Below are positions 18,901 through 54,259 of a stretch of 64,000 nucleotides of DNA, piece by piece. The notes beneath the pieces were generated by a model, which saw only the letters and a program-made list of their open reading frames with translations, was not told where the DNA came from and made no database searches. The translations under genes and the position numbers were made by a program. This stretch comes from Phycisphaerae bacterium (lineage in GTDB: Bacteria; Planctomycetota; Phycisphaerae; Sedimentisphaerales; Anaerobacaceae), in NCBI GenBank assembly GCA_030615025.1, contig JAUXAB010000013.1, positions 3,655 to 67,654 on the forward strand, read 5' to 3'. Every line of letters begins with the position of its first letter. Position 1 is the first letter of the stretch.

Positions 18901-20358
18901 GATCCGTGCACTACTCCGGTCGGCGATGCCGATACTGCTGTGAGTCAACCAGTCGATCCGAGTGACAAGCTCGGGCCTACGGGCTGCGGCGCGGCGAGGT
19001 TCGTCCGAGGGGACGATTTACTTGCGTACAAGATACGATTCGAAAATGAATCCGACGCCACTGCACCAGCCCATATCATTAACGTCACAGATACGCTCGA
19101 CGAAGATCTGGACCTCAGTACATTTGAACTTACAGAGATTTCCTTTGCCAATCACATTATTATTGTGCCCGAGGGCCTGAATCACTACGAGACGACCATG
19201 AATCTCGTTGTTGAGAATGAGTTCGTCAGCGAAACCGAACTTGTTGTTGAAATAGACGTTTTTCTGGACATGGGCTTGCGAGAGCTAACCTTCACCATGA
19301 TCGGAGTCGATCCTAACACGGGTTGGTTGCCCGAAGACATTATGGTAGGGATGCTTTATCCTAACGACGACACAGGACGCGGTGACGGCCACATTAGCTT
19401 CACTGTCAAGCCAATCCCGGGCCTCCCATCAGGAACTGAGATTACCAATAAGGCGACCATCAAGTTCGACTGGGAAGACCCACTTTTGACGCCATTAGTA
19501 CTGAACACAATTGATGCTGCCCCCCCAGTCAGTCAGGTCAACGCTCTGCCCCCAGAGGCAAATGACATTTCCATCCTTATCTCATGGGGCGGCCAGGATG
19601 ATGCCAACGGCTCAGGTATCGCCAGTTATGACATCTATGTTTCAGATAACGGAGGTGCATATATTCTTTGGCTGGATGACACAAATGCGATCTCCGCTAC
19701 CTTTGTTGGTGAGCATGGGCATACCTATTCGTTCTACAGCGTGGCCACAGATAATGCGGGCCATGTGGAAGAAGCGCCGACAGTACCGGATGTGATTATA
19801 GCCCTTTACGACCGCACTTCCCCTCGAGTCATAAACGCGATCGTGAATGAAAGTCGGCCCCAACGTTCTACTATCGGAATGCTGGGGATTCAGTTCAGTG
19901 AGCATCTTGAGGTCACCAAAGAAATATTGACGCTATATAACAACACGGATGGCAATTATGTGGACCTATCAGGCTTGACTGAATCAGACTTTGATTATAG
20001 CGAATCAACTTATACAACCATATGGAACGTGTCAGGTCTGATACTCTCGGACGACAATTATACTGCCACTATTTTGGCATCCGCTGTTATTGATACGGGA
20101 GGCAATCAGCTGGATGGAAATGGTGACGGCACCGGCGGAGATGATTATACATTTGATCTCTTCCGCCTATTTGGTGACTTTGACGGCAGTGAGAGTGTTG
20201 ACTTTATTGACTTCTCGGCCTTTGCAGAAAAATGGCGAACTACTGATTGTGTTGAGCCATACTGGTGCGGTGGGGCTGACTGTGAGCCAGATGGGGATGT
20301 AGATTTTCCTGACCTTGCCGCATTTGTTCAGCGCTGGCTTGAAGGCGTAGGGCAGTAA
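9931..20358 (+). CDS. Giant secreted multidomain protein: 2x(LamG + Ig-like), 2x Gly-rich beta-helix-like module, Ig-like/CARDB/PPC/IPT domains, RHS/YD shell, C-terminal beta-sandwich domains and dockerin-like tail
   Basis: Signal-like N-terminus MKNSHLCITATLILLYAAAVANG. LamG_3 domain ends (IDEVRIWNIAR, twice). Internal duplication of about 330 aa. GGGGYGGSGG...RIAIHYN modules, twice. CARDB-like segment DLTLSNVVVDP...GNYHIIVRTD. Many YDxxGRL repeats. RHS core ending RFYEATTGRFITGDPLGI...YRYVHNNPLNSIDPKGL. Good SD (GAGGGGTG) before the ATG. Confidence 0.9.
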   Translation: MKNSHLCITATLILLYAAAVANGDWYALRFDGVDDYVDCGNNPVFALNDAITLVAWVKTNDTTNGEFNSFITKGDHAYGLKSNTRDAIEFVIYDGMWVTAEYSVNSSFNGVWHHLAGVYDGSELKLYIDGEPVATTAHTGTIGSTSDDVYLGGNSETAGHFYEGLIDEVRIWNIARTQEEIQINMYALFDGNEPNLVGYWQLDEGTGQIASDSSGNGNHGQLGSTSGSDSADPAWVVSSASFETGLWITGHVPSGIVMNPVSYIDVTFSKDVNAVTFTLDDVNMVGPNGAIAGNPPLHQGANVWRVSFPEHSAEGLYYVYIGPHIEDSNGNEMDQDRDGIPGEYPDDRYEGTFTISRNTALQFDGVDDYVDLGNDLSLSISDHITISAWVKHNSGTPGQWEDIIMKGNTAYGFQLYNTSGEFTFHIHSGSWKNLKSDVVPEAGSWYHIAGTYDGNVQKVFINGVLNNTDYWSGTIDENSDHLTVGYKVAGDNSWFNGAIDEIRIWNIARIQEQIAAGMNRALVGQEAGLVGYWRFDEGAGQTASDSSGNRNDGQLGSTSGPDDNDPAWVVSAAPVRKEFWLTVYTPSGFVTNPVSYVDVTFSKDVNGPSFTVDDVNMMGPSGPISVNSPSYQGRNVWRVSFPEQSEEGEYHLYIGPDIEDSNGNKMDQDGDGIAGEVPDDIYDAIFTVVQGILFTSDTLIDVGDANYEGEDIVVSGCTLTVNGEHEFNTLHLINSGVVTHSAATDGQADYKVYLNIAGDVTVAAGCEISADAKGYGYDRGPGAGGYIFIRSGYVKRVRSGGGGYGGSGGIGEFSNVVYGAPYGSITQPNEPGSGGGHWNGGTGGGVVHLTIGGAFLLDGRITANGTNGTWSSYMDYSYSGGGGSGGSIYIGAETFTGQGLIAANGGAGAGGSGGGAGGRIAIHYNTNTFTGTSSAYGGSGYEYGGAGTIFTKSPTQIWGDLLVDNDDNLGATTPLLNNDWTFDAMEVVEKGNLEVPADVNLTLIPDVLTVDSNGQMIVRGQVLYEGDINGRFSLVELTSGGTLVLDDDGQISCGHAELSGGTLIINDSGRLDLQHVEVLSGGTLILNTLQAFPSMHIGPGGLLTHAQSVDGFDLRISADLTVDAGGSVSVDAKGYGVVSGPGAGGFGKVDALLATNLFGGGGGYGGTGGDSRGGATGGSVYGSLTEPTDWGSGGGLQCCGGVGGGAVRLAVGGTFLFNGEITANGTNGFYNYQPGSHRYGGGGSGGSVFVATETWAGSGTIVANGGQGAGGGGGGGRIAIYYNDDSFSGTISAAGGAGGGPGQPGTVFLGRDLPPMVSSDMAPRGQVRTPLDHIDFVFTRPIDPNTFTLEDIQLWGPDGEVFITSIALVNEFAGRQTYRISFPILVANGGYRLSIGPNITDEEGNLLDQDYDGVGGEAIDDVYEVRWTLDTIGPRIANHSPAGDIAGTVGYVDVWFSENLDTATFSLDDVNIVGPGGNITPTDLAEIGNSVFRITFDAQTMQGQYHVLIRPDVNDLAGNIMDQDDDGTQGEPNDDTYDASFYLADVDLTLSNVVVDPNELLAGEEVTVSWYGSNQSGMPLLGDWTDAVYLSADDQWDIEDELLATIPHSNGLAQDETYSRSVDVLVPGRIPGNYHIIVRTDLYNQEKEAGDEGNNIVAIGPLSLDVRELLADAVPVTGTLTDSNWLDYYEINTQDGNNLAIILDQLDPNASVDFFVSYERIPTVLDYDFRSSVNVQGNLQVTITGTLAGAYYVLVDGDQFVGPSSYDLMADTPEIVVTSINPDHHGVGSACTITIVGGGFDDSSTVEFIGSDDSIWAPSQIRVISPTTMTVDLDLPAWPQDAYDLIVAKPGVDPHEVVNAFEVTTAVPAILDARVVVPSALGRHWYATLWIEYANTGEASMPAPLFKLHGSDDAILTLDSSLAGRGLWTNTSPAGTSDTVQVMATGSGATPGILQPGDSGRIPVYYLGLKLPWDFSDGTVKFDLGVLTADGTEPINWASLKDEVRPKSILPDAWDAIWVNLTEQIGDTWGDYVAMLDENMNYLHTVGQDVSDVKSLLAFGIQQAQALSPFSYLAGAAELYSLAPGIPLTFSRVYGQSIDSRYEFGPLGRGWRHNWDIYIEEFPDGDVIVRGPLGIDRYFNRDSGGYTASPGDYGTLTLSDGKYNLTEKYGAVWQFRSDNLLDYVEDRNGNRITAGYATGQLISITHSNGDQLLFDYNGEGRIWHVTDPRGPGPEDDYVVIYEYDVSREHLVNANEPNNRVTRYTYNTGNGLQREHALLSVEYPDGRDVHFSYDAKGRLVETHRGGGVESVTYSYDPTGTVTVTDATGRQAVLYFGLGGQLAQLRDGEGNVIRLAYDRNYELTQLTGASGQQYNYSYDSLGNLTTIEDPLRRITALTHSSSFNDLTLVIDARNNGIDYDYDSSGNLTAITYEDGTTESFTYDASGNVLTWTNRRGDTVTYSYDSRGQLTSKDYSNTPEANDCTYVYDDAGNLISATDASSMIAMTYDPSTDWLTRIDYPGGYFFTFEYDNVGRRTQRTDQNDNVVKYIYDTVGQLGQMTDGNDALIVDYDYDAGGRLSRKTLGNGVYTNYEYDNAGRLTHLINHGSDASVISRFDYTYDASGRRTSITTLDGTYSYDYDPLDQLTDVTYPDGRIVEYVYDAVGNRIAVIDDAVATSYTTNNINQYTNVGEITYTCDADGNLQAKTEGGITTTYTYDVENRLVGVSTPTDTWTYTYDVFGNRISSSHNSVTTQYVVDPIGYGDVAAEYDNAGSLIATYDHGFGLLSRTDALGASAYYTFDVIGSTSELTDANGTILNTYAYDPFGISLSKLESIPNPFQYVGEYGAMHENHGLEFMRARFYEATTGRFITGDPLGIATGDVNFYRYVHNNPLNSIDPKGLDLWDFYDEYRKWSWKQTKKTLEDILKPPPATPLSEYEDLDYPEEDEEEGWRDPLRHALDDLIPILPPTEPMVGDRPLSELGKTPQKMPPELPDPCTTPVGDADTAVSQPVDPSDKLGPTGCGAARFVRGDDLLAYKIRFENESDATAPAHIINVTDTLDEDLDLSTFELTEISFANHIIIVPEGLNHYETTMNLVVENEFVSETELVVEIDVFLDMGLRELTFTMIGVDPNTGWLPEDIMVGMLYPNDDTGRGDGHISFTVKPIPGLPSGTEITNKATIKFDWEDPLLTPLVLNTIDAAPPVSQVNALPPEANDISILISWGGQDDANGSGIASYDIYVSDNGGAYILWLDDTNAISATFVGEHGHTYSFYSVATDNAGHVEEAPTVPDVIIALYDRTSPRVINAIVNESRPQRSTIGMLGIQFSEHLEVTKEILTLYNNTDGNYVDLSGLTESDFDYSESTYTTIWNVSGLILSDDNYTATILASAVIDTGGNQLDGNGDGTGGDDYTFDLFRLFGDFDGSESVDFIDFSAFAEKWRTTDCVEPYWCGGADCEPDGDVDFPDLAAFVQRWLEGVGQ
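16168..18624 (+). other. RHS/YD-repeat shell and RHS-associated core inside the giant CDS
   Basis: YDAKGRLVE, YDSRGQLTS, YDDAGNLIS, YDNVGRRTQ, YDAGGRLSR, YDNAGRLTH, YDASGRRTS and others, ending with the canonical core motif ...NPLNSIDPKGL at 18610-18624. Confidence 0.85.
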
Positions 20359-20677: not shown

Positions 20678-20940
20678 CTACGCAGCTCTTTTAAGCCGAT
20701 ACCCAGTGATCCGTGTTTCCTGGAATCGATGATGTTCGATATTACACGGAACCGTTTTTGCGTCACGTTTCGGCTTCTCCGGCTTTTTCTCGTAATAGAC
20801 ATCATCAGGTCGAAGACCATCCAATGTCATGTGTGGCCGCCAGATATTGTACCAGCTCTCAAATTCTTTACAGAGAAAGGTCAGATGATCAAAGTCTTTA
20901 ATGGTCGGTGCCGATTGTACACGGCGCTCAATACCTGATG
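20678..20940 (-). mobile_element. 3' fragment of a DDE (rve/integrase-core) transposase gene
   Basis: My translation of the minus strand gives ...IKDFDHLTFLCKEFESWYNIWRPHMTLDGLRPDDVYYEKKPEKPKRD...RLKRAA*. This contains the WYNxxRPHxxLxGxxP motif typical of the rve C-terminus. There is no start codon, and an in-frame stop lies just upstream (about 20957), so it is a remnant. Confidence 0.6.
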
Positions 20941-21186
20941 GTAAACGGCCAGGACGTCACTTCAATTACGTTAGAGCTGGGCCAGTCGCGGGGTGTCGAA
21001 ATTCGCATTTCACAATTGCGAAGTATGGTTTGAGGGGGCAGGTGTTTGGTCGGTGGGGTGTGGTAAGTTGAGATACTTTTTCGGGTTCTGGGGGAGCGGA
21101 GAAGCTCGATCAACACTCAAAAACGACGTTTTGGCACAGTAAGCACATATAAATAGGGATATTTGGGGCTTATGTGATATTTTTTC

Positions 21187-22143: not shown

Positions 22144-22764
22144 ATGAGGTCAACAAAGTTACTGCTCGTTGTGGTTTTGTTGATGTTGTTGTCGGCCCCG
22201 GTCGGCTTGTGCGAGAATATTGACCCTTATGAAGACGACTCGCAGTACGCCTACGGTGCGAACGTCGGCTGGCTGAACTTTGAGCCGAACGAAGGGCCCG
22301 GCGTCACGGTCACCGAGACGGAGCTTAGCGGCTATGTCTGGGGGGCACAAATCGGCTGGATAAACCTCGACCCGAATTTCGGCGGGGTTGTAAACGACGG
22401 GACCGGCCGTTTGTCCGGTCACGCCTGGGGCGAAAATGTCGGCTGGATAAACTTTGACCCAAATGTTCCCGACGACCCCAATCGTTATGGTGTTACCGTC
22501 GATGAGCTTGGCAAGTTCGCCGGGTGGGCCTGGGGGCAAAATATCGGCTGGATAAACTTCAACTCGGCTGAGCTTTTTGACCAGGGTGTTCGGGCATGCA
22601 AGGTGGCTTTTGACGACCTTGCGAATTTTACCGACCACTGGCTCTCAATAGACCCCACTTCGCCCGGCAATCTAATCGCACCTACAGGTGTCGATGAACA
22701 TGACTACGCGGTCTTTGCCTGGTACTGGCGCTGTTTCTGCCCCGACGGCTGGCAACTTAAGTAG
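22144..22764 (+). CDS. Secreted protein with four G-x-N-[IV]-G-W-[IL]-N-[FL] repeats and dockerin-like CPxGW tail
   Basis: Signal peptide MRSTKLLLVVVLLMLLSAPVGLC. Repeats GANVGWLNFEPN, GAQIGWINLDPN, GENVGWINFDPN and GQNIGWINFNS. C-terminus ...FAWYWRCFCPDGWQLK. SD GGAGG before the ATG. Confidence 0.7.
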   Translation: MRSTKLLLVVVLLMLLSAPVGLCENIDPYEDDSQYAYGANVGWLNFEPNEGPGVTVTETELSGYVWGAQIGWINLDPNFGGVVNDGTGRLSGHAWGENVGWINFDPNVPDDPNRYGVTVDELGKFAGWAWGQNIGWINFNSAELFDQGVRACKVAFDDLANFTDHWLSIDPTSPGNLIAPTGVDEHDYAVFAWYWRCFCPDGWQLK

Positions 22765-42111: not shown

Positions 42112-42589
42112 TTTTGACCTCTCTTTAATTATGGTTCAAAAGTTTTTTTGGTAGTCATGCCCGCGATTCCAAGCCAAAAGTAGTAATATTAAGCGAATTG
42201 TAGAAATTTTCAATAATTTTGGCAAATTTGCCGAAATTTTATTTGGCAGGGAATTTACTTTGTGCTAATATTAGGGATAGAAATAGGTAGGTTTGAAAAG
42301 TCTATTATTATAATTTAAGCCGTCATCATATTCGATTTGTATCTCATATCCTTAACCTGCCTGCCAAAAAGAGGTTCTTTGCAGCGCGGCTTGGTTTCGT
42401 ATCCGGAGTTTCTCGACAGTTTACTTGACTGTGACGTTCAAAAGTCATATACTTCGTCCGGCTTAAGTGACTTTGCCGGAGGCGTAAGTGATGTCAAAAG
42501 GCCGTTCTATTACCGTAATTTCGCCAAATTACCAGCAGATAGCGGTGTGCGCAGTGTGAAATATTAACAATTTTTGAAAGGGTGAAACA

Positions 42590-44860
42590 ATGAAAACGAC
42601 AAAAATGTCAACAATTTTGGTTTTGGGCCTTGTGGTCTGGCCGGCATCAATGGCCTGCGGGGATATATCTCTGACGGTGAACAACCAGCCGCTGAATTCG
42701 GTTACCCTGAAGCTGGGCCAGTCGTACAGTGTTGAAGTCGTGTCAGCCGACAATAAGTCCTACGTGGCGTATGTCGGCTTTGATTATGGTCTGATCCTCG
42801 GCAGTTTTTCACATCTCGAGACTAAGCCGGAAGCCGGTAACTTTGCCACTGCAGCAGAATATGTGCCACCGACTTTCTACGGCTACTATCTTAACGCTGC
42901 CGGGTTTAGTCCCGTGCCATCTGCCGGAGTTCATTTTGTCTTCGAATACGTGGTGCAACAAGTTGGTGAAACCGATGTGAAACTTTATGATGAGACTCTT
43001 ACATCGGTGATAGATTCGGTACACATCACGGTTATCGCTGCGCCAATGCGGACTGGCTTTACTTACCAGGGCCGGCTGATGGACGCCAACAGGCCGGCAG
43101 ATGGCCTCTATGACTTCCAGTTCAAGCCCTACGATAGTCCTGACCCCGTGTTTGCCATGCAGTTGAGAAGCACGATTGACATAGATGACCTTGATGTCAT
43201 AGACGGCTACTTTACGGTGGAACTGAATTTTGGCAGTGATGTGTTCGACGGCGATGCACGCTGGCTGGAGATTGGCGTTCGGCCGGGGGACAGCACCGGC
43301 AGCTTTACCACCCTCAGTCCGCGGATAGAGATAACACCCGTACCATACGCACTGCAAACGCGTGGGATATTTGTAGACAATATCGGCAATGTCGGCATCG
43401 GGACGACAAGCCCTGAAAAGAAGTTGCACGTAGACGGGCAGTCGAGGTTTTCTGGAACGCAATCGGCTTTTGAGATCAACGCGGATACAACGGCGAATAC
43501 TGTGCAGTTCTTTGCGGACGGGACAGATAAGTTGTATTTCGGAAGCAAGATGGGGTCGAGTTTCATTTACTTCGACGGTGACGCACTCTGCGGGATTGGA
43601 GATTTCAGCCCGGATGCAAAATTTGAGGTCAGCGCTGACGGCGGCACCTCAGATCTGTTCATGCTTTCGAGCGACGACGAGAACGACGGGGATCTGTTTA
43701 CTGTTAAAAACGCCGGCAACGTCGGCATCGGCACCACCAGTCCCGGTGCAAAGCTCCACGTAACCACTTCTGATGTCAACGCTGTCCGCGGCGAGGCCAC
43801 TGGAACCGGCAATGTCACCAACTATGGCGGATACTTTCAGGCCGCAGGCATGGGGGGCCGGGGCGTCTACGGCGCAGCTACCAGTACAGAAGCAGGTGCC
43901 GCCAACTACGGCGGCTTCTTTGAGGCCGCCGGCAGCAATGGCCGGGGCGTCTACGGGTATGCCACGGGCAGCTCCGCCTGGGGCAACTACGGCGCGGCTA
44001 CGAGTACGGAAGTGGGTGCCCTCACCTACGGCGGCTACTTTGAGGCCGCCGGCAGCAATGGCCGGGGCGTCTACGGCTGTGCCAGTAATACGGGCGATCA
44101 CCGCAGCTACGGCGGTTACTTTGAGGCCAGAGGCACGCAGGGCCGGGGCGTCTACGGCGCGGCTACGAGTACGGAAGTGGGTGCCCTCACCTCCGGCGGC
44201 TACTTTACAGCAGCAGGCGACACAGGCTTGGGCGTCTACGGCTGTGCCAGTAATATGGGCGATTACCGCAACTACGGCGGCTACTTTGAGGCCGCCGGCA
44301 AATATGGCCGGGGCGCCTACGGGTATGCCACAGGCAGCAATGGCCGGGGCGTCTGTGGTGAGGCCGCGGGCGAACGTGGCTCCGGCGGCTACTTTGTCGC
44401 ACGTGGCAGCGATGGCTACGGCATGTACAGCGTGGCCATAGGCAGCTATAGCACAGCCGTCTATGGCTGGGGACAACAATATGACTTTTATGCCGCAGGC
44501 GATGGGATTAATTATGGCTCACCTTCTTCTATCCGTTGGAAGAGCGACATTCGCCCCATCGACGACCCGCTGAACAAGGTCATGAGTTTGCGGGGCGTCT
44601 ACTTTAATTGGGACGCCGAGCACGGCGGAGAGCACGATGTGGGTATGATCGCCGAAGAGGTCGGAGAGGTGCTGCCGGAGATAGTGGAGTACGAAGCGGA
44701 CGGCAAATATACCAGCGGCATGGACTATAGCAAGCTGACGCCGCTTCTTGTCGAAGCCGTCAAGGAACTTAAGGGAGAAAATGACAGATTGAAAGAAAGA
44801 GTGGAAGCTCTGGAAAGAACGATACACCAGCTTGCAAAAGTGAAGGAGTTAGAGCTATGA
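42590..44860 (+). CDS. Secreted tail-fibre-like protein with Gly-rich repeats and C-terminal S74 intramolecular-chaperone domain (cassette 1, large gene)
   Basis: Signal peptide MKTTKMSTILVLGLVVWPASMA. FTYQGRL...ARWLEIGVRPGD...ITPVPYAL module. NVGIGTTSP..KLHV motifs, twice. GRGVYG repeats. C-terminus SSIRWKSDIRPIDDPLNKVMSLRGVYFNWD...GMIAEEVGEVLPEIV...MDYSKLTPLLVEAVKEL. Confidence 0.85.
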   Translation: MKTTKMSTILVLGLVVWPASMACGDISLTVNNQPLNSVTLKLGQSYSVEVVSADNKSYVAYVGFDYGLILGSFSHLETKPEAGNFATAAEYVPPTFYGYYLNAAGFSPVPSAGVHFVFEYVVQQVGETDVKLYDETLTSVIDSVHITVIAAPMRTGFTYQGRLMDANRPADGLYDFQFKPYDSPDPVFAMQLRSTIDIDDLDVIDGYFTVELNFGSDVFDGDARWLEIGVRPGDSTGSFTTLSPRIEITPVPYALQTRGIFVDNIGNVGIGTTSPEKKLHVDGQSRFSGTQSAFEINADTTANTVQFFADGTDKLYFGSKMGSSFIYFDGDALCGIGDFSPDAKFEVSADGGTSDLFMLSSDDENDGDLFTVKNAGNVGIGTTSPGAKLHVTTSDVNAVRGEATGTGNVTNYGGYFQAAGMGGRGVYGAATSTEAGAANYGGFFEAAGSNGRGVYGYATGSSAWGNYGAATSTEVGALTYGGYFEAAGSNGRGVYGCASNTGDHRSYGGYFEARGTQGRGVYGAATSTEVGALTSGGYFTAAGDTGLGVYGCASNMGDYRNYGGYFEAAGKYGRGAYGYATGSNGRGVCGEAAGERGSGGYFVARGSDGYGMYSVAIGSYSTAVYGWGQQYDFYAAGDGINYGSPSSIRWKSDIRPIDDPLNKVMSLRGVYFNWDAEHGGEHDVGMIAEEVGEVLPEIVEYEADGKYTSGMDYSKLTPLLVEAVKELKGENDRLKERVEALERTIHQLAKVKELEL
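44520..44857 (+). other. Peptidase_S74-type intramolecular chaperone (auto-processing) domain
   Basis: Motif string as in phage endosialidase/tail-fibre chaperone domains: S-x-R-x-K-x-[DN]-I, GxIAqEV..vlPe, Y..L.p.L+.A+qeL, then a coiled coil. Confidence 0.75.
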
Positions 44861-45276
44861 GGCTTGACAAGGGCATTTTGACAAATATTGTACTCCCAGT
44901 TCTCACCATTTGTTTACTGCTGCTTTCACCTGCATCGGCCCAAACCGGCGGACACTATGAGTTGAGCTGGAGTACGATTGACGGCGGTGGTGGAGTAAGC
45001 AGTGGTGGGCAATACGAACTTGTCGGTACGATTGGTCAGCCGGATGCGGCCTGGAGCAGCGGCGGCAGCTATGAATTGCTCGGCGGCTTCTGGCCGGGTG
45101 GGCCCTTGTGTATAGTTTCTTTTGACGACTATGCAAGATTCGCTGAACTATGGCGTCTTGAGGGAACTGGTCTGCCGGCGGACCTGGACGGCAGCGGACA
45201 CGTAGACTTTGGCGACTTGGGTCAGTTTGCTGATTTATGGCTGCGCTGCTGCCCGACGGGCTGGCCGTTGAGGTGA
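44857..45276 (+). CDS. Small secreted GGxYEL-repeat protein with dockerin-like CPxGWPL tail (cassette 1, small gene)
   Basis: The ATGA overlap with the upstream stop suggests translational coupling. Hydrophobic N-terminus. GGHYELSWSTIDGGGGVSSGGQYELVGTIGQPDAAWSSGGSYELLGGFWPGGPLC, ending ...DLDGSGHVDFGDLGQFADLWLRCCPTGWPLR. Confidence 0.75.
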   Translation: MRLDKGILTNIVLPVLTICLLLLSPASAQTGGHYELSWSTIDGGGGVSSGGQYELVGTIGQPDAAWSSGGSYELLGGFWPGGPLCIVSFDDYARFAELWRLEGTGLPADLDGSGHVDFGDLGQFADLWLRCCPTGWPLR

Positions 45277-45394
45277 GAGTAAGAAAACCCGCAGTGAAAT
45301 TGCGAGCCCAATACAGAGATTCTTCGCGGAGTTTATCCTTGAGCGAAGTGAAGGGCCCACGATGACATTTTCGTATTGCGTTGGCTCATTGCTT

Positions 45395-46687
45395 TCACTT
45401 GCCAGAGGGCTTGATCTGTGCCTTCTCTTGCTCTGTGAACTTACTATTTGCGATAGGGCCGGGTTCCCAGCACTGCTCCAGCTTGCTCAGCTTTGGCTTT
45501 CGGACCGGAATGACAAAGACTTCCTGGCCGTCCGCATTCTTCTCTACCCGTCCGCCGGCGCGCTTGACCGCCTGCCGGACAAGTTTTTCGCACACATTGA
45601 CCAGCGTCGGGAAGTTGTACGGCGTATGGCTGAACTTGCCCTCCGGATTCAAAGCGGATTTGAACCTTTCAGGCAGATTCTTAAACCCCATCGTCGTAAA
45701 CAGCACACCACCGGAGTTCGATGGGTTGCAATCGGAGTCCTGTCCGCAGCGGGTCGAGATAATGATTGTTTTGTCCGGGTCTCCTTTACCGTACAACAGA
45801 CCCATCACGATGTAAGCCCCGTTGATTTTGGCGTCAATATTAAATTCGCCCTTCGGGCCGCTGCAGGAGAAGCGGCGATACGCTGGATTCAGGTGATACT
45901 TTTCGTTGATGAGCTGCCAGGTTTTCTCCCAGTCGTTCGGGTTCTGCTTGTACCACACAAGCACGTCACGGATACATTCAGCGTATTGGCTGTCCCGGGG
46001 GATGGATTTGAGAGCGGTGCGGACGATCCTTTCCATATCATTTTCAAAGAAGGCCTCGGCGTACATTGCGCCGACGAACTGACCGCCGTACACTCCGTCG
46101 CCGTAGTTCATCAGCCGGCCGAATTTTTCACCGAGCTCGATGACCACGTTCGGCAGACCCGGCGCAATCAGGCCCGAGTAGTCCGCCTCTATCTGGTAAT
46201 CGATGTCGTCGGCGTGCCTGTTAAACTTTGGGTGGCCCGAGTCCGGTGGAGCAATCCCTTTCCGCAAATTATCACGGCCATTCTTGTTGGCATGCCAGAG
46301 GTTGTAGCCGCTGTTGGCAAAGTCGATACCCGCCTGTCGGAGCGAACAATCCAGCCCATACTGCTCCAGCGTGTGTAGAAACGTCATTTCAACGTAGATA
46401 TCATCCTGCCCGAACTGGTTGATCATTTCCGGACGCCACTTTGGCATCTTGTCGGCAGGCATGATTACGCCTTTGTAGTGAAACTCGGTAGGTCCTCCCC
46501 AGCCTACGCCCGCCATTTGCCCGACCCAGCCTGCCTTCATCTTGTCCGCATAATCCTCGACGGTTATGCGGCGAGCGGCCGGACCGATACCAAGACCACG
46601 CAGCGCATCGCCCTGACAGCCGGCAACAAATACTAAGCCCAAGCTCACCACAGCCACCATCGCAGTTGTCAGGAAACCTTTAGCCAT
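45395..46687 (-). CDS. ADP-ribosylglycohydrolase-family lipoprotein
   Basis: The ATG at 46687 follows GGAGGTG. Lipobox LVFVAGCQG. ARH-family features DDIYVEMTFL and GQDSDCNPSNSGG. Confidence 0.75.
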   Translation of the reverse strand: MAKGFLTTAMVAVVSLGLVFVAGCQGDALRGLGIGPAARRITVEDYADKMKAGWVGQMAGVGWGGPTEFHYKGVIMPADKMPKWRPEMINQFGQDDIYVEMTFLHTLEQYGLDCSLRQAGIDFANSGYNLWHANKNGRDNLRKGIAPPDSGHPKFNRHADDIDYQIEADYSGLIAPGLPNVVIELGEKFGRLMNYGDGVYGGQFVGAMYAEAFFENDMERIVRTALKSIPRDSQYAECIRDVLVWYKQNPNDWEKTWQLINEKYHLNPAYRRFSCSGPKGEFNIDAKINGAYIVMGLLYGKGDPDKTIIISTRCGQDSDCNPSNSGGVLFTTMGFKNLPERFKSALNPEGKFSHTPYNFPTLVNVCEKLVRQAVKRAGGRVEKNADGQEVFVIPVRKPKLSKLEQCWEPGPIANSKFTEQEKAQIKPSGK

Positions 46688-46859
46688 TTTGCACCTCCAA
46701 AGCATTAACCTCTTTCAACAAAACATGACCGATTGACCAATTTAACAGATTGTTTTTGCGTATCGCATATATCATATTGGGTATATCGAATAAAGTAAAA
46801 AGTAAAAATAACATTAAAGAATTTGGGCCTGGCTCGGTGAATGAGGAGGCGTCGGGTTT

Positions 46860-47120
46860 GAAATTGGGTTTGATTGGCTTTGTATTGGGTTTGTTTTCAA
46901 AAAGTGCCCAATTTAACTTATTTTCATAATCCTTTGTTAAGAAAGTAGTTACGTTAATTTGGGCATTTAGCAAATTGGCTTTGATTGGGTTCGTTTGGGT
47001 TCGTATTGGGTTCGTTTTGGGTTCGTTTTTCCCGCGTCCACTAAGTGTCTTATTTTCATAATCCCCTGTTAATACTTTATTTACGTTCATCTTGACTTTT
47101 CGGAAATTGGGTTCGTTTTG
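46860..47120. repeat. Cluster of short TTGGGTTCGTT-type repeats with two copies of a TTTTCATAATCC element
   Basis: TGGGTTCGT occurs four times in tandem at 46986-47028, again at 47108-47116, with variants at 46863-46897. TTATTTTCATAATCC occurs at about 46919 and about 47050. Track ORF 46680..47282 (-) is built from these repeats. Confidence 0.6.
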
Positions 47121-47943
47121 CATAAAAAGGTTGATTTGTAGAGACATCTTTACAAGTGTAAAGATGCCGAAGGCACGTAAATAGTTCATTAATCGCGGAT
47201 TGCGCAGATTAAACAGATTTTTGGCCATTAATAAGCCTGCTACTACTACAAAACCATATAATTGTGTTGGCTGTATCATCATATTGGGTAAGGAGTTATA
47301 TAGTAGTTTGAAATCCGAAATCCTTAATTTTCAAAACAAAGGCTTCGGGATGACGGTCCCGAAATGAGGGCTGTAAAAAAAAGACGTCCCTCTATAATTG
47401 CACGAATGTGCGCGTTTGATTCGAAAAATGGCTTGTTTTTGACAGGATTTACAGGATTAACTTGTTGTGGGCAAAGCAGTTAAAATTTTTTTATTTTTTT
47501 CAGATTTGGCCGATTACTATGTGCGCTTTTGGTCGCGCATTTTACCTATTTTAACGCGACAGGAAGGCACAAAGAATATAGCCACAGAGGGCACTGAGAG
47601 AAAAAAGTTTATCAGGTAATCAGGTAAACAGGAAGTGGATATCAGGGGAACAGGATATCAGGAGTTTTGGCCGCGAAAAGGCACAAAATGCACAAAAGAG
47701 ACAAAAAAATGACCAAAAAAGTGCTTTATTAACCACAGATTTCACAGATTTTTAACCGCAGATTGCGCAGATTATTAAGGATTACAGGCGGTGGAAGACC
47801 CCCTTAGAGTGGAGGGCACTCTAAAAAAGGGGGCAAGCGGTTTTTTGGTTTTGACTTTTGGGGGTGTTGGGGGTCCGCCTGAGGCGGATAAATCCGCCAG
47901 AAGAAAGGCGGATAAATGTTTTGGGGTGGTAGGAGGGACTAAG

Positions 47944-48151
47944 TGGATCCCCGCCATATCAATGATTAAGGATAATTGATGATTGATTATTGTTGGAGAT
48001 TCTTCGCCTTAGTAAGGAATATCGAATATCGAACAAGGAATTTCGAATGATGAAGGGAGAAACGCTGGGTCCCTGCCATATCAATGATTAAGGATAATTG
48101 ATGATTGATTATTGTTGGAGATTCTTCGTCTTAGTAAGGAATATCGAATAT
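47944..48151. repeat. Tandem direct repeat: 86-nt unit, two copies, period 122 nt
   Basis: 47944-48029 and 48066-48151 differ at 3 of 86 positions. A partial third start (TGGATCCCTGCC) is at about 48226. Confidence 0.8.
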
Positions 48152-48281
48152 TCCTTCGACTCCGCTCAGGATAAACTCAGAAATAAAACCGCTGCAAGGA
48201 ATGTTGAAAATCGAAGTGAGAAATGCTGGATCCCTGCCTAATACATGCAGGGACTCGGGACTTAGAAAAGGCGGATTTTTG

Positions 48282-48310
48282 TTGACAATGGGATACTAAA
48301 GCCATATCAT
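48282..48310 (+). promoter_or_regulatory. Sigma70-like promoter candidate (TTGACA-17-TATCAT)
   Basis: Hexamers at 48282-48287 and 48305-48310, about 190 nt upstream of the cassette-2 large gene. Confidence 0.35.
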
Positions 48311-48501
48311 TATATTGATTTTAATGGTTTTGTGATAGGAAGAGCGGTGAAAAAAACGCGATTCTATTGTCTCAGTTCTGGGAATTTTTACGAAAAGGTA
48401 TCGGTGCGCACAGTGTGCACCGTCAACCATTAATAGTTCCCTGCTGGAGTTTATCCCGCACAAGGATGCGGGGCGGGGACAAGCTTTGAAAGGAGAAAAC
48501 A

Positions 48502-51066
48502 ATGAAAAGTGCAAAAATGTCAACAATTGTGGTTCTGGTTTTTGGCCTGATGGTCTGGTCGGCGTCGATGGCCCACGGCAAGATACATCTGACCGTGAAC
48601 GGCAAGCCGCTCGATTCAATTACGTTAGAGCTGGGCCAGTCGTGTACTGTCGAGGTCGTATCGGATGACAGTACGTCTTACGAGGATGCTGTTGGCTTTG
48701 GTAATCCTGATGCGCCCCGGCCTCAGATACCCCGGGTTCTTGGGGATTTTTCGCATCTTGAGACCAGGCCGGAAGCTGGTAATTCCGCCACTGTAATAAA
48801 AATCACTGATCTTTATTTTTACGGTTATGGTGTTAAGGCTGCTGGTAGGGGTATAACACCCGGAGTTCATTTTGTCTTCGAATACGTGGCGCAACAGGTC
48901 GGTGAAACCGATGTGAAACTCTACGATAGTACATTTACGAATGTGATAGATTCGGTACACATCGCGGTTATACAGCCTCAACACCTGAGGGTAAACGGCC
49001 AGGACGTCCGTTCAATTACGTTAGAGCAGGGCCAGACGTGTACTGTTGAAGTCGTATCTACCGTCAGTACGTCTTACACAGACTATGTCGGCTTTGATAA
49101 TGGCGTAGTCCTTGGGAGTTTTTCGCATTATGAAACGACACCCTTGGCTGGTGATATGGCAAGAGTAACAGAATATAATAAGCCGGATTTTTACGGCTAT
49201 TATGTTGTGGCTGCCGGGTTTAAACCCCCGCCATCTGCCGGGGTTCATTTCATCTTCGAATACGAGGCACTACAGGTCGGTGAAACGGATGTGAAACTCT
49301 ATGACGAGACACTTACATCAGAGTTAGATTCTGTACACGTCACGGTAATGACTCCGGCGCCAATGGGCACGGCCTTTACCTATCAGGGACGTCTGCTGGA
49401 TGCCGGCAGCCCTGCGGACGGCCTATATGACTTTGAGTTTAAACTCTATCGCGCCCCTAATGGAGGTATCCAGGAAGGAAATGCGATTGATATAAACGAT
49501 GTTGATGTTATCGATGGGCAGTTTGCAGTGGAATTGGATTTCGGCAGCGATGTTTTTGCCGGCGATGCCCGCTGGCTCCAAATCGGTGTTCGGCCAGGTG
49601 ACAGCAGCGGCGGCTTTACCACTCTAAGTCCGCGGCAGGAGATAACACCTGTGCCTTACGCTCTGCATGCGTCGAGCAGTAAGGTAAAACAGCTTATTGC
49701 GGATTTTGTAGTTGCTTCCGGCGAAAGTGTTACTGCCGGGGATGTGGTCGTTTTCCTTAACGGATATGTTCAAAAAGGGTTTGCTGCGACAGGCGATAGG
49801 ATTAGCTGTGGCTCAGAGTATGTGTTTAATCCATCCTACACCGGTTACATGTCAGCTGCCGCCCTGTCTTCAACCAAATTCGTGGTGGCCTGCATGGATA
49901 AGGGATACTATGATTACGGCATAGCGGTCATCGGCGATGTTTCAGGTAGTAGTATTACCTATGGCTCAAAATATGTGTTTGACCTCTTCACTGGCGCCAT
50001 CTCAGTTGCCGCCCTTTCTTCAGATAAGTTCGTGGTGTCCTATAGGGCTACTGGATACTATGATTACGGCGTAGCGGTCATCGGCGATGTTAGCGGTAAT
50101 ACTATTGCCTACGGCTCAACATATATATTTAATGAAGCTACGACTGACTGGACCAAAGTTGCTGCCCTTTCTTCAACTAAGTTCGTGGTAGCTTACAGGG
50201 ATTATGGCAACTTTGATTACGGCACGGCGGTCATCGGCGATGTTTCAGGGGATAGCATTACGTATGGCTCAGAATATGTGTTTAACCAAGCCGTCACTTC
50301 CCACACCTCAGTTGCTGCCCTTTCTTCAAATGAGTTCGTGGTAGCCTATAGGGATGGAGGTACTAGCGGCACTGCGGTCATCGGCGACGTTTCCGGTAAT
50401 ACTATTACCTACGGCTCGGAGTATGTGTTTAGCTCAGCCGGCCCCTACTGTATCTCAGTTGCCGCCCTTTCTTCAGCTAAGTTCGTGGTAGCTTACAGGG
50501 TTTATGGCAACTTTGATTACGGCACTGCAGTCATCGGCGATGTTTCAGGTAGTAGTATTACCTATGGCTCAGAATATGTGTTTAATCCAGCCCCCACCGG
50601 CCCATACATTGGAGTCGCTGCCCTCTCCTCAACCAAATTCGTGGTAACATACGAGGATGAGGAGGGATACTATGATTACGGCAGGGCAGTCATCGGCGAT
50701 GTTTCAGGGAATAGTATTACCTATGGCTCAGAAAACGTGTTTAATGAAGCCTTCACTGGCTCCATCTCAGTTGCTGTGCTTTCTTCAACTAAGTTCGTGG
50801 TAGCCTACAGGGATGAGGGCAACTCTGATTACGGCACGGCCTGTATCGGAACCCTTCTTGCTGGCAATATAGTAGGAATTGCTAAGGAATCAGCAACAGA
50901 TGGCCAAACAGTCCCTGTAATCATTGACGGTGTTTCCGACGTGCATTCGGGTTTAATACCGGGAGTAGTTTATTATAGAGATGCAAATGGCGATTTGACC
51001 ACTGACCAAACTGTTTACAGGGTAGGTCTGGCTATCTCTTCTACCGAGATTCTTTTAGATAGATAG
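48502..51066 (+). CDS. Secreted fibre-like protein with duplicated N-terminal domain and about seven 50-aa repeats (cassette 2, large gene)
   Basis: The signal peptide and head are homologous to 42590-43357 at both aa and nt level. The N-terminal approximately 130-aa domain is present twice (aa about 25-157 and 160-285). After ...ITPVPYALHA come repeats VIGDVSG..ITYGSEYVFN...VAALSS.KFVVAYRD. SD AAGGAG before the ATG. Confidence 0.85.
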   Translation: MKSAKMSTIVVLVFGLMVWSASMAHGKIHLTVNGKPLDSITLELGQSCTVEVVSDDSTSYEDAVGFGNPDAPRPQIPRVLGDFSHLETRPEAGNSATVIKITDLYFYGYGVKAAGRGITPGVHFVFEYVAQQVGETDVKLYDSTFTNVIDSVHIAVIQPQHLRVNGQDVRSITLEQGQTCTVEVVSTVSTSYTDYVGFDNGVVLGSFSHYETTPLAGDMARVTEYNKPDFYGYYVVAAGFKPPPSAGVHFIFEYEALQVGETDVKLYDETLTSELDSVHVTVMTPAPMGTAFTYQGRLLDAGSPADGLYDFEFKLYRAPNGGIQEGNAIDINDVDVIDGQFAVELDFGSDVFAGDARWLQIGVRPGDSSGGFTTLSPRQEITPVPYALHASSSKVKQLIADFVVASGESVTAGDVVVFLNGYVQKGFAATGDRISCGSEYVFNPSYTGYMSAAALSSTKFVVACMDKGYYDYGIAVIGDVSGSSITYGSKYVFDLFTGAISVAALSSDKFVVSYRATGYYDYGVAVIGDVSGNTIAYGSTYIFNEATTDWTKVAALSSTKFVVAYRDYGNFDYGTAVIGDVSGDSITYGSEYVFNQAVTSHTSVAALSSNEFVVAYRDGGTSGTAVIGDVSGNTITYGSEYVFSSAGPYCISVAALSSAKFVVAYRVYGNFDYGTAVIGDVSGSSITYGSEYVFNPAPTGPYIGVAALSSTKFVVTYEDEEGYYDYGRAVIGDVSGNSITYGSENVFNEAFTGSISVAVLSSTKFVVAYRDEGNSDYGTACIGTLLAGNIVGIAKESATDGQTVPVIIDGVSDVHSGLIPGVVYYRDANGDLTTDQTVYRVGLAISSTEILLDR
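49770..50850 (+). repeat. About seven tandem coding repeats of roughly 150 nt
   Basis: GC(G/A)GTCATCGGCGA(T/C)GT recurs at 49924, 50074, 50227, 50374, 50527 and 50686. Some units share long near-identical stretches (49924-49975 versus 50527-50580). Confidence 0.8.
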
Positions 51067-51123
51067 AGACAATGATGACCAATTCTTTTAAGATGTGATG
51101 TGCAAAAAATCAGGAGTTTCACA

Positions 51124-51552
51124 ATGAAAACGATTATTGAAAATGGTTTTATCACGTTGGTAGCGGTATTGCTTTTAATGTATTCATCGGCTTTGGCGAT
51201 GAGCGGCGGAGACTATGAGTTGAGCTGGAGCACGATTGATGGCGGAGGCGGGCGGAGCAGTGGTGGGCCATACACGCTAACGGGCACTATTGGTCAGCCG
51301 GATGCGGCCTGGAGCAGTGGCGGCCAGTATGAGCTGTTAGGCGGCTTCTGGCCGGGCGGGCCGTTATGCTTTGTTGACTTCGCCAGCTTTGCAAAATTCG
51401 CTGAATGGTGGCTAGAGCCGGATTGTAAAGAAGACAATAACTGGTGTGGTGGAGCGGACCTTGACAAGTTGGGTAACGTTGACCATATCGACTTAGACCT
51501 GCTTGTAAAGCAGTGGCTGTGCTACTGCCCGCCGGGCTGGCCGTTGAAATAA
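51124..51552 (+). CDS. Small secreted GGxYEL-repeat protein with dockerin-like CPxGWPL tail (cassette 2, small gene)
   Basis: The ATG at 51124 follows AGGAG; the track ORF starts at GTG 51100. The core SGGDYELSWSTIDGGGGRSSGGPYTLTGTIGQPDAAWSSGGQYELLGGFWPGGPLC is a paralog of 44857-45276. Ends ...LLVKQWLCYCPPGWPLK. Confidence 0.75.
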   Translation: MKTIIENGFITLVAVLLLMYSSALAMSGGDYELSWSTIDGGGGRSSGGPYTLTGTIGQPDAAWSSGGQYELLGGFWPGGPLCFVDFASFAKFAEWWLEPDCKEDNNWCGGADLDKLGNVDHIDLDLLVKQWLCYCPPGWPLK

Positions 51553-52067
51553 GACTAACGGATGACAGACGACGGACGAGGGACGACGGACGATTGATGA
51601 CTGACGATAGACAACGAAGAGGGTTTTAATAGATTCCTCTGCGATCGGAATGACCCCGCACCTATTGCCCAGCACCAAGTTACGCAAGTTTGCTACTTGG
51701 GGCGGGACACGACGGCAGAAGCCTATCCTTCGATTACACTCAGGACAGGTTTCGTGCGGGGCAAGCAACGCCCGACAGTGCCGGGGGGGGGTAAAAAGGA
51801 CAAAAAAACCCCACCGCAGGGGTGGGGGCTAACCTAAAGAAGGGGGCAGGGGTGGGGAGGTTAATTCAAGACCTATCACCCCGGAAATTGCGGTGCTGTT
51901 GCCGGACGTCTATTACCCGACGCCGTTTCGGAAAAAGCACATCAAAAAGATTATTTTACACCAAGTGCGTCAATATTGCAATAAACTCGTATTTTGGGTA
52001 TTTTGACTGAGGTATTTGCGGCTGCTTTAGAAAAATCGACTTATGACAGTTTCCCTTAAAAAACAGC

Positions 52068-52774: not shown

Positions 52775-54259
52775 ATGGCTACTATGTTCTATTCATTAAA
52801 GGAAGTTGCTGAGAAACTCAGTAAAACAGAGGATGAAGTAAGAGAAATAGCCAGGCAGGGCAGGCTGCGCGAGTTCCGTGAGGGCCCGAATTCGCTGTTT
52901 AAGGCCGATGAAGTCGAAGCATTGATGTCCGACACAAGTATTATGCCATCCACAGAGCCGCCTGCACCGTCAGAACAGAAACCAGAAGAGGATGAGATTT
53001 CATTGGCCCCGGAGCCAGTTGTGACACCGGAGCCAACCGAGATTCCGGTGCCACCTGAGACACCAGTGCCGACTGAGGCTCCGGAGCTAATCGAGACTCC
53101 ACAGCCAACCGAGACTCCGGCTCCGGCCGAGACTCCCAAACCTGCTGAGCCCCCGGCTCCACCATCTGAGACTCCAACGCCGCCTGAGACGCCGGAGCTA
53201 ATTGAGACGCCGGAGCCAGTTGTGACGCCGGAGCTAATTGAGACGCCGGAGCTAATCGAGACTCCACAGCCAACCGAGACTCCGGCTCCGACCGAGACTC
53301 CCGAACCTGCTGAGCCCCCGGCTCCACCATCTGAGACTCCAACGCCGCCCGAGACGCCGGAGCCAACCGCAGCGCCAGAGCCAATTGTCACGCCAGAGCT
53401 AACTGAGACGCCAGAACCAGCTGTGACTCCGGAACCAACTGTGACTCCGGAGCCAACCGCGGCACCACTGCCGGATGATAGTCTGGGGCTAATTGAGATT
53501 CCGGAACCGGATGTCACTCCGGAGCCGACCTTGGCGCCGGAGCTAAGCGGCACACCAGTAGAAGAAAGCGACCTGAGCGCCGCGGACACTGCCATAGCAG
53601 GCTCAGGTATCGACGTCCTCGATGAAACCGGCAGCCGTGCGCAGTCAACAGATGACACCGTAATAGAGGCCAAAGACACAACGGCTGAAACGCCATTGCA
53701 AGAGATTGAGGAAGATGTAAACCTGGATAGTTTTGGCAGTGGCTCGGGTCTGCTGGACCTCTCGCTGCAGGCTGACGATACTTCATTAGGCGGCATTCTT
53801 GACGAGATTTATGCGCCCGAGGCCGACGAAGGCGAGCAGGCCGGGGAAACAACTGGTTCAGCAGTGGAAATGGCCGCTGAGGCAGCGCAAATGCTGCCGG
53901 AAGAGGAGCTTACCGCCCCAGAACCGGCCCCAGCGGTACCGGCAATAGCTCAAGCGTATGTCGAGCCGGAGCCGGATACGGTAAGCAACACGCTCGGGAT
54001 TGTGCTGTTTTTGCCCTTGTTGGCCATTATTTACACAGCGATAGTGGCGGTGACAGGTTTCAGCGATATTATGCCTTCAATCCTGGAAAAGATTCAGGGT
54101 ATAATCTGGTACATCGCGGGCGGCGCCGTTGTGGTAGCAGTCTTGATAGTCGGGGCCGCTTTCATGCTCAGCGGCAAAGCTGCTACAGCGGGCAAAAAGA
54201 AAAAAGCCAAGAAAGCCAAAGAAGCCCCGCCGCCGGCTCCAGAGGACGCGACCACTTAG
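52775..54259 (+). CDS. Membrane-anchored protein with N-terminal excisionase/MerR-like HTH, Pro/Thr/Glu-rich repeats and C-terminal TM helices
   Basis: YSLKEVAEKLSKTEDEVREIARQGRLREF resembles HTH_17/excisionase-type DNA-binding domains. About 200 aa of PE(P/T)xVTPE repeats. Two hydrophobic helices (LGIVLFLPLLAIIYTAIVAV, IIWYIAGGAVVVAVLIVGAAFML) and a Lys-rich tail. Confidence 0.6.
   Translation: MATMFYSLKEVAEKLSKTEDEVREIARQGRLREFREGPNSLFKADEVEALMSDTSIMPSTEPPAPSEQKPEEDEISLAPEPVVTPEPTEIPVPPETPVPTEAPELIETPQPTETPAPAETPKPAEPPAPPSETPTPPETPELIETPEPVVTPELIETPELIETPQPTETPAPTETPEPAEPPAPPSETPTPPETPEPTAAPEPIVTPELTETPEPAVTPEPTVTPEPTAAPLPDDSLGLIEIPEPDVTPEPTLAPELSGTPVEESDLSAADTAIAGSGIDVLDETGSRAQSTDDTVIEAKDTTAETPLQEIEEDVNLDSFGSGSGLLDLSLQADDTSLGGILDEIYAPEADEGEQAGETTGSAVEMAAEAAQMLPEEELTAPEPAPAVPAIAQAYVEPEPDTVSNTLGIVLFLPLLAIIYTAIVAVTGFSDIMPSILEKIQGIIWYIAGGAVVVAVLIVGAAFMLSGKAATAGKKKKAKKAKEAPPPAPEDATT

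Follow-up and report, generated by a model that had tools for sequence, protein, structure and literature searches.

How might a bacterium display surface proteins that begin alike and end in unrelated domains, and what would a small gene that accompanies them contribute? The question is raised by a 64,000-nucleotide (nt) stretch of contig JAUXAB010000013.1 (the window) from a Phycisphaerae bacterium of the order Sedimentisphaerales, in which two cassettes lie on the same strand, each composed of a gene for a large secreted protein (L1 or L2) and a following gene for a small secreted protein (S1 or S2; S for the family as a whole). The large proteins share a conserved head module of approximately 105 amino acids (aa), behind which their sequences part abruptly, and S genes follow head-bearing genes in a strongly directional manner that is independent of the type of distal tip. 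S is tentatively read here as an adaptor that would bind the conserved module and tether it to the cell envelope. The features of the two cassettes, with open reading frame abbreviated as ORF, hidden Markov model as HMM, and Tandem Repeats Finder as TRF, are as follows.

42567..42589, + strand: start of the nt similarity between the cassettes, with a shared ribosome-binding region (blastn); counterpart at 48479-48501.
42590..44860, + strand: L1, a 756-aa secreted chimeric fibre protein of S74 type (ORF, Pfam, PHROGs).
42662..43039, + strand: optional beta-rich N-domain of L1, single copy, aa 25-150 (BLASTP, alignment, HMM survey).
43040..43357, + strand: conserved head module of L1, FTYQGRL...PVPYAL, aa 151-256, a predicted all-beta sandwich.
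43358..44524, + strand: L1 stalk with two NVGIGTTSP motifs and six Gly-rich GRGVYG repeats (motifs; weak PDB sequence matches).
44525..44857, + strand: S74 intramolecular chaperone and self-cleaving domain of L1 with a C-terminal coiled-coil-like tail (PF13884, E 1.3e-13).
44857..45276, + strand: S1, a 139-aa secreted partner whose start overlaps the L1 stop as ATGA.
48502..51066, + strand: L2, an 854-aa secreted chimeric protein without S74 and with the base as in L1.
48580..49359, + strand: beta-rich N-domain of L2, a tandem pair (copies 48580-48975 and 48976-49359).
49360..49668, + strand: conserved head module of L2, aa 287-389 (Bdello_MAT_N, E 6e-4).
49796..50837, + strand: distal repeat array of L2, VIGDVSG..ITYGS.YVFN..VAALSS.KFVV, 6.8 repeats of 51 aa (TRF).
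50857..51063, + strand: C-terminal domain of L2, Phage_cement_2-like (Pfam E 0.021, under the family cut-off).
51124..51552, + strand: S2, a 142-aa secreted partner whose ATG lies 57 nt past the L2 stop; an alternative GTG start is at 51100.

Both large proteins begin with an N-terminal Sec signal peptide, judged by reading the sequence (MKTTKMSTILVLGLVVWPASMA in L1 and MKSAKMSTIVVLVFGLMVWSASMA in L2). An earlier note, made from the letters of this DNA alone, had proposed that they share this peptide, an N-domain present once in L1 and twice in L2, and the head, with nt similarity setting in just before the ATG and breaking off right after PVPYAL, and the alignments bear this out. In BLASTP, aa 28-256 of L1 matches aa 162-389 of L2 with 67% identity (E 9e-97), and aa 1-149 of L1 matches aa 1-157 of L2 with 62% identity; because of these protein alignments the N-domain (approximately 125-130 aa) is counted as a single copy in L1 and as a tandem pair in L2. 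At the nt level, 42567-43356 and 48479-49667 are 70-73% similar in blastn, a similarity that begins 23 nt 5' of both ATGs and stops within 2 nt of the final PVPYAL codon (43354 and 49665), beyond which L1 and L2 are unrelated. Judged from these alignments, the similarities between the two proteins are far beyond chance.

The distal part of L1 carries NVGIGTTSP motifs at aa 268 and aa 378, six GRGVYG-type units spanning aa 423-573, and nt repeats with periods of 81-165 nt at 43860-44330, followed by Pfam Peptidase_S74 at aa 646-699 with its Ser...Lys motif as SSIRWK at aa 646; a PDB sequence search matched the S74 region to MyRF (7dc3) and to a phage long tail fibre (6f45). The distal part of L2 is built of a 153-nt repeat with six exact IGDVSG motifs, and the PDB sequence search with L2 returned zero matches. 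Pfam and TRF thus agree with the earlier reading of an S74-type end in L1 and of about seven repeats in L2. Homologues of the repeat tip alone, 46-65% identical over 54-67% of L2, carry labels of Chloroflexota, Desulfobacteraceae, and Planctomycetes, and the tip is therefore considered a mobile module. By analogy with the Kelch and RCC1 propellers that occupy the same position in relatives, the L2 repeats probably form a beta-propeller-like tip.

The same exchange of tips is seen in the wider family. A Pfam scan of 62 head proteins, namely L1, L2, and 60 S-linked proteins of related genomes, revealed S74 tips in 18, collagen in three, C1q in two, and Sortilin/BNR-like repeats in two, while Kelch, RCC1, the C-terminal part of T4 gp5 (gp5_C), T4 gp36, and Collar were found in a single case each. 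The L1/L2 boundary is a sharp recombination breakpoint, and the family is mosaic.

The small secreted gene that the earlier note had placed behind each large gene, with an ATGA overlap in one cassette and a 57-nt gap in the other, is present in both. S1 is composed of a signal peptide (aa 1-28), a core with three GGxYEL units (aa 30-84; nt 44944-45108), and a tail (aa 83-139; from nt 45103) with one calcium-loop-like motif and CCPTGWPLR; S2 has the same core and a tail with an extra cysteine pair. Each contains three GGxYxL units, GTIGQPDA, GGFWPGG, and a cysteine-containing C-terminal tail. The two proteins are 57% identical (E 2e-45). Their genes had been put at about 85% identity in the core, which holds for the core (82% in the best 150-nt core window and 85-87% in the best 60-nt windows), but not for the genes overall (66-71%).

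The S family comprises more than 2,000 members, none of them named, in Phycisphaerae/Sedimentisphaerales, and homologues of named source come from metagenome-assembled genomes of Sedimentisphaerales and Phycisphaerae (Planctomycetota). Its plan is a signal peptide, a core of approximately 55 aa with three GGxYEL-like units, and a tail of approximately 55 aa that forms a helix-loop-helix with a single DxDxDGxVD loop and a terminal CCPxxWPL(K/R). An alignment of 35 diverse members has 35 invariant positions, including W38, TIGQPDA, GFW, C85, and C132. In the AlphaFold2 (AF2) monomer model, with a predicted local distance difference test (pLDDT) of 60, the core falls below 50 and the tail helices reach 77-85; low confidence for the isolated core is as expected if the core folds on a partner. 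A Foldseek search of the model against PDB found nothing (best E 2.6), and a PDB sequence search with the S profile gave zero matches. The candidate phyla radiation pilus tip pilin PamT (NF058579), a truncated Ig-like tip pilin by its family description, was considered as an identity for S and rejected, since S1 reaches 14.8 bits where the cut-off is 240, and the likeness is confined to a signal peptide and a Gly-rich core.

The linkage of S to head genes was surveyed from both sides. In the S-seeded survey (79 loci of species-representative genomes, with 62 evaluable S genes), a head gene lies directly upstream on the same strand, often with a 4-nt overlap, for 46 S genes, upstream with one intervening gene for 13, and farther upstream for one, while two S genes have no head gene upstream. 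S is thus downstream of a head-bearing gene in 60 of the 62 evaluable loci, and several genomes have at least three cassettes. In the head-seeded survey (80 metagenome loci, scanned with a narrower head alignment), S is adjacent to 31 head genes, follows after further head genes for 13, comes after one intervening gene for 12, lies farther off for three, and does not occur within 2.5 kb or more for 10. Approximately 81% of the head genes therefore stand in an array that ends with S, and arrays hold up to five head genes with a single S, as in survey locus L102. At least one of the ten cases without S holds a frameshifted S fragment (L132), and S fragments are also found in L102 and L118.

Across 2,763 cassette pairs, S is 64.6% identical where the tips are unrelated and 66.1-66.3% where they are related, and S is more conserved (mean 65.6%) than the head (58.9%). 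As the identity of S is independent of tip relatedness, S goes with the invariant module and not with the tip. The earlier description of a conserved head with an obligate partner is thereby refined: the partner is tied to the module, but neither to each individual head gene nor to a tip.

The co-variation with tips bears directly on a first alternative, in which S would be a tip-specific fibre assembly chaperone or a distal accessory adhesin comparable to Tfa or gp38 of phages. Such a role would suit the gene order, in which a small gene comes after the fibre gene as in phage fibre and Tfa pairs, as well as the phage-type S74 end of L1. It was rejected on the co-variation test and is rated as highly improbable: S does not change with its tips, one S family stands behind S74, collagen, C1q, Kelch, RCC1, and repeat tips alike, and S has a signal peptide, is without a PHROGs match or a viral relative, and is unlike the phage Tfa and gp38 chaperones. 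Moreover, S74 fibres already have an intramolecular chaperone of their own.

Approximately 20% of the related cassettes have three genes, with a gene for a secreted cysteine protease or a PLAT protein between the fibre gene and the S gene. Examples are Peptidase_C10 with an I69 pro-domain (L014 4506-5987 and L012 4474-5934), Peptidase_C11 (L029 4439-5911), and a PLAT-domain protein (L006 4529-5920). Many of the proteins encoded by the intervening genes have a common C-terminal module of approximately 80 aa (FPYRYF...LQFLP...NGSI+F). The two cassettes of the window are without an intervening gene, and the window does not encode the module.

The two parts of S are distributed separately. The S tail alone terminates many unrelated secreted proteins, two of them in the window:

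20197..20343, + strand: dockerin-like tail as in S at the C-terminus of a 3475-aa LamG/RHS-repeat protein (tblastn).
22597..22761, + strand: dockerin-like tail as in S, including CPDGWQLK, at the C-terminus of a 206-aa GWINF-repeat protein (tblastn).

The first belongs to a secreted giant encoded at 9931-20358, with LamG-like N-terminal domains, RHS/YD repeats, and the S1/S2-type helix-loop-helix end. The second belongs to a secreted protein (22144-22764) with G(W/E)N(I/V)GWINF repeats and a full CPxGWxLK tail that has no Pfam match; an orthologue with the same tail occurs near another cassette (L070 7910-8530).

The tail had been called dockerin-like, a description that holds only below the family thresholds. 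Of the 35 aligned S members, 25 match NF041540 (dockerin_GC), with a best E of 4.5e-4 and 14.7 bits for S1 against a cut-off of 29, and two match PF00404 (Dockerin_1) at E 0.04 or worse; EF-hand models also remain sub-threshold. Like dockerins (PF00404, NF041540), the S tail is a C-terminal helix-loop-helix of approximately 55 aa with a DxDxDGxVD-type loop that recurs on diverse secreted proteins. It differs from them in its single calcium-loop-like motif, its sub-cut-off matches, its invariant cysteines, and its terminal CCPxxWPL(K/R). We know of no cohesin-like partner for it.

The core, in turn, occurs in other company. In L055 (4996-6324), the gene just behind a head gene encodes a fusion, in which a PD40/TolB-like repeat region of approximately 330 aa precedes the core with its GGxYEL units and the tail. 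Secreted core-only proteins of 96 aa are encoded behind distant fibre genes at L169 8856-9146 (E 1.5e-13 to 3.6e-17) and, as a weak match of 17.8 bits, at L171 11918-12208. Both have a three-unit GGxYxL core ending in GGFWSG and lack the dockerin-like tail; one has the C-terminus YLPLVLRGR and the other a Pro-rich stretch. The heads at these two loci are at most 47% identical and resemble heads labelled Anaerolineae, and the fibre genes, which are fragmented by frameshifts, are probably Chloroflexota-like.

This distribution is also where a second alternative has to be weighed, namely that the linkage reflects co-regulation only and that S is an independent surface or matrix protein, for example a calcium-binding envelope component, with no contact to the fibre. 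The tail, as a generic module of many secreted proteins, would fit such a protein, and so would the head genes that have no S nearby and the protease or PLAT genes that separate head and S in a fifth or so of the cassettes. The directional, same-strand, and often overlapping placement of 60 of the 62 S genes argues against it, however, as does the finding that the S core occurs in no other context across 171 loci, save one fusion that also lies behind a head gene. The pairing is even kept in distant lineages that have another sequence in place of the tail. An unconnected S is accordingly considered improbable.

The head module belongs to a very large family. A head profile searched against 1.84 billion representative proteins matches 56,838 of them (each representing a cluster) at E <= 1e-3 and 14,449 at E <= 1e-30, and among the top 150 matches the module nearly always lies within residues 1-150, right behind the signal peptide. 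The Pfam scan found no model for FTYQGRL...PVPYAL, and a PDB sequence search with the head profile returned noise only. The AF2 model of the L1 head is all-beta and confident (pLDDT 87, predicted TM score (pTM) 0.79). Its fold search gave generic beta-sandwich neighbours only in PDB (best E 0.014, TM score approximately 0.5) and borderline matches to phage minor tail proteins in BFVD (best E 8e-4, TM score 0.55). A fold-family assignment was rejected, as both sets of fold matches are too weak. The beta-rich N-domain, which the earlier note had treated as a shared element, is shared by L1 and L2 but optional in the family: the HMM survey found it in 16 of the 173 head-bearing ORFs in the fetched loci. 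Most relatives have the head directly after the signal peptide, and the window proteins have one or two extra domains in front. The head is most likely the cell-proximal base of these proteins and not their distal end.

The closest known plan is that of the mosaic adhesive trimer (MAT) fibres of Bdellovibrio bacteriovorus, which, in the passages of their description that were read, have a signal peptide, an invariant beta-rich N-domain of approximately 130 aa without a PDB homologue, and a trimeric fibre that ends in S74 or in alternative tips such as TNF-like domains, lectins, and new beta-sandwiches (Caulton et al. 2024, PMC10769870). The same passages leave the surface element bound by the N-domain unidentified, and neither they nor a keyword search of the supplement mention a linked small partner gene (PMC10769870). 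The MAT N-domain model NF053851 of NCBIfam (Bdello_MAT_N) is the one named relative of the head: against it, the head of L2 scores E 6e-4 (19.6 bits) and that of L1 E 0.07 (12.9 bits), with a cut-off of 60, and 18 of 24 diverse head family members match weakly (best 1e-5). The L1 stalk (aa 260-405) weakly matches the MAT chains 8ojn_C (E 7e-4) and 8ond_A (bd2133, E 8e-4) in PDB. The lack of a strong PDB homologue for the head model agrees with the statement made for the MAT N-domain, and the distal ends correspond to the MAT alternatives, with S74 and its Ser/Lys pair in L1 and a non-S74 repeat tip in L2.

The planctomycete proteins resemble MAT proteins in their Sec signal peptide, in a conserved N-terminal module that is beta-rich by prediction, and in a long, mosaic distal part whose end is either a self-cleaving S74 domain or another tip, TNF/C1q-like ones among them; they also have many paralogues per genome, are chromosomal and not phage-borne, and show weak links in base and stalk. 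They differ in their host, an anaerobic sediment planctomycete (Sedimentisphaerales) that is not a known predator, in the optional extra N-domain before the base of the window proteins, and in some propeller-like repeat tips without a stalk. Unlike MAT fibres as far as their published description was seen, they are accompanied by a conserved small secreted partner gene. L1 and L2 would work like MAT fibres and are probably distant members of the MAT superfamily, although homology of the base module is weakly supported.

The cassettes also resemble polymorphic toxin and adhesin loci (Rhs and contact-dependent inhibition) in their conserved N-terminal part, abrupt breakpoint, swapped C-terminal modules, and small downstream gene. 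Unlike in these loci, S is conserved and not variable, and the variable parts are binding or structural folds and not toxins; because S is secreted, it is not an immunity protein. The receptor-binding or polymorphic-adhesin logic that the earlier note had seen outside a prophage setting is supported by the loci surveys and by the MAT resemblance.

From this comparison, L1 and L2 can be read as surface proteins of the MAT plan and S as a trans-acting adaptor that would bind the conserved base and tether it to the envelope, a reading that we favour tentatively, giving it a little less than an even chance. L1 and L2 would be members of a multigene family of cell-surface proteins, secreted and encoded on the chromosome, in which the signal peptide is followed by a beta-sandwich base of approximately 105 aa and then by an exchanged distal part. 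That part would be a Gly-rich stalk with a self-cleaving S74 domain in L1 and a tip of seven 51-aa repeats with a small C-terminal domain in L2, and the two would bind different external ligands. The core of S with its three GGxYEL units would bind the base, and its tail, with the single calcium-loop helix-loop-helix and the CCPxGWPLK end, would fasten the complex to an envelope component. A C-terminal anchor in cis would be impossible, because the C-terminus is the working tip and is cut off in S74 fibres; the anchoring module, which other secreted proteins of the organism bear in cis, would therefore be supplied in trans by the small co-translated S. Three S repeats may face a three-fold fibre base, which is an attractive idea. 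The data above show the domain anatomy, the mosaicism, the linkage of S to the head, its independence of the tip, and the modularity of its core and tail; from these we infer trimerisation, surface location, physical binding of S to the base, and an anchoring role of the tail.

Several observations weigh against the adaptor. Besides the inferred nature of the S-head contact, approximately 14% of the head genes have no S within 2.5 kb, and the similarity to Bdello_MAT_N is far under the cut-off (19.6 against 60 bits) and covers approximately 40 residues only. No fibre stalk is recognisable in L2, and this protein may not form trimers. The extra N-domain of the window proteins precedes the base and fits less simply with the base as the most proximal element, and the S tail meets the dockerin models only below threshold, with one calcium loop against two in dockerins.

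The main rival to the adaptor keeps S on the same module but makes it a transient periplasmic factor for the assembly or export of the base, similar to a pilotin or chaperone and not part of the finished structure. A small, secreted protein whose gene is often translationally coupled to the head gene through an overlap of 4 nt, and which tracks the conserved module instead of the tip, would fit this role; its core is disordered alone in the model, and a single S per multi-gene array suits a catalytic helper. Secretin pilotins are also found among weak fold neighbours, but of the head and not of S. The S tail is, however, also carried by large proteins that are clearly extracellular, the RHS giant among them, and the 35 invariant positions together with the PD40 propeller fusion look more structural than expected of a chaperone. 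A transient factor is thus rated as rather unlikely, while a permanent adaptor is preferred. A broader form of the adaptor reading, in which the S core would be a general cross-phylum cell-side anchor for the N-module of MAT-type fibres, with three repeats on three subunits and lineage-specific anchoring tails, is doubtful but conceivable.

The phage-like end of L1 raises a further alternative, in which a prophage, tailocin, or contractile injection system has decayed and left the cassettes as its remnants, with the large proteins as its fibres. In line with it, L1 has a bona fide S74 C-terminus with the Ser/Lys motif, as in phage S74 fibres and tailspikes (K1F endosialidase, T5 L-shaped fibre; PF13884), and many tail-fibre PHROGs matches, which lie mainly in this C-terminus, with two extending into the stalk; an Hcp gene lies 20 kb upstream. 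A scan of 2.9 million viral contigs found zero relatives of S and one of the head, in an IMG/VR contig. Unlike phage fibres, however, the window proteins have signal peptides (of Sec type in both L1 and L2), no virion context, and N-terminal parts without a phage family match, and L2 has no S74; PHROGs searches gave zero matches to the N-domain, the head, L2, S1, and S2. No capsid, portal, terminase, sheath, or baseplate gene, and no other structural gene of a phage or injection system, was found among 26 window ORFs scanned, a set that covers every annotatable neighbour between 33.8 and 61.7 kb. The window neighbours are cellular, with a CBM/GH10 enzyme, TPR proteins, ADP-ribosylglycohydrolase, a subtilase, an FGE-sulfatase/deacetylase fusion, and MBOAT. 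Related cassettes lie in varied housekeeping neighbourhoods and adjoin genes for ribosomal proteins, tRNA synthetases, lipopolysaccharide biosynthesis, or ribonucleotide reductase, and the family has a very large membership, with multiple copies per genome. The locus lies in a cellular context and is no prophage; an origin from a prophage or injection system was rejected on gene context and is regarded as very unlikely. None of the outcomes that would have spoken against the earlier proposal was observed: S genes are not dispersed apart from head genes, there is no prophage at this site, and S matches no characterised family.

MAT-type chimeric fibres have reportedly been described only in 2024 and in one predator. 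The building plan is very common, with a base module that runs to 56,838 clusters without a Pfam model and is present in anaerobic polysaccharide-degrading planctomycetes. To our knowledge, no protein components of the surface fibres of such planctomycetes are known. Literature searches turned up nothing relevant on the small partner, its linkage to the base, its motifs, or Sedimentisphaerales fibres. A conserved, unnamed S tied to an invariant module is a concrete candidate for an anchor or assembly partner, and the C10 and C11 proteases with their common C-terminal module hint that enzymes, and not adhesins alone, may be positioned by the system. If the adaptor reading is true, it would explain how bacteria display interchangeable receptor-binding modules and would offer a portable display scaffold. 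If the S core is in fact a general anchor, a widespread and previously unrecognised two-component display system for swappable binding modules would be at hand, and the question left by the MAT work would be answered.

Several other features of the window stand apart from this argument. An orphan Hcp gene (21356-22054; Pfam T6SS_HCP, E 1e-40) lies approximately 1 kb downstream of the RHS giant, and the scan of window ORFs revealed no other genes of a type VI secretion system. Between the genes of the giant and Hcp, tblastn found a remnant of the beta-rich N-domain, 34 aa long and interrupted by a stop, at 20902..21003 on the + strand (MVNGQDVTSITLELGQSRGVE), which may be a relic of a third cassette. 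A gene at 39281-40828, which lies 1.7 kb upstream of L1, encodes a DUF3466 protein of 515 aa that is secreted and contains repeated DGDGVPDTWFRDD motifs; a TPR protein gene precedes it, and in L001 a TPR gene stands directly upstream of a cassette fibre gene.

Rfam and tRNA scans of the window were empty. The stretch of approximately 1.8 kb upstream of L2 (46706-48500), which has no credible ORF and no Rfam or tRNA match, contains short tandem repeats, with 11-mers at 46854 and 46985 and a 23-mer at 47726. Starting 6 nt past the S2 stop, the heptamer ACGGACG is repeated approximately five times (51558-51593). Farther downstream, 52775-54259 encodes a 494-aa protein that is composed mostly of Pro/Thr/Glu-rich TPEPxxTPE repeats, with a C-terminal transmembrane segment, a Lys-rich end, and no Pfam match. 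Near the other end of the window, an AbiEii nucleotidyltransferase toxin gene (7410-8216; Pfam E 1e-28) is preceded, with a 4-nt overlap, by a 211-aa ORF that is its likely antitoxin.

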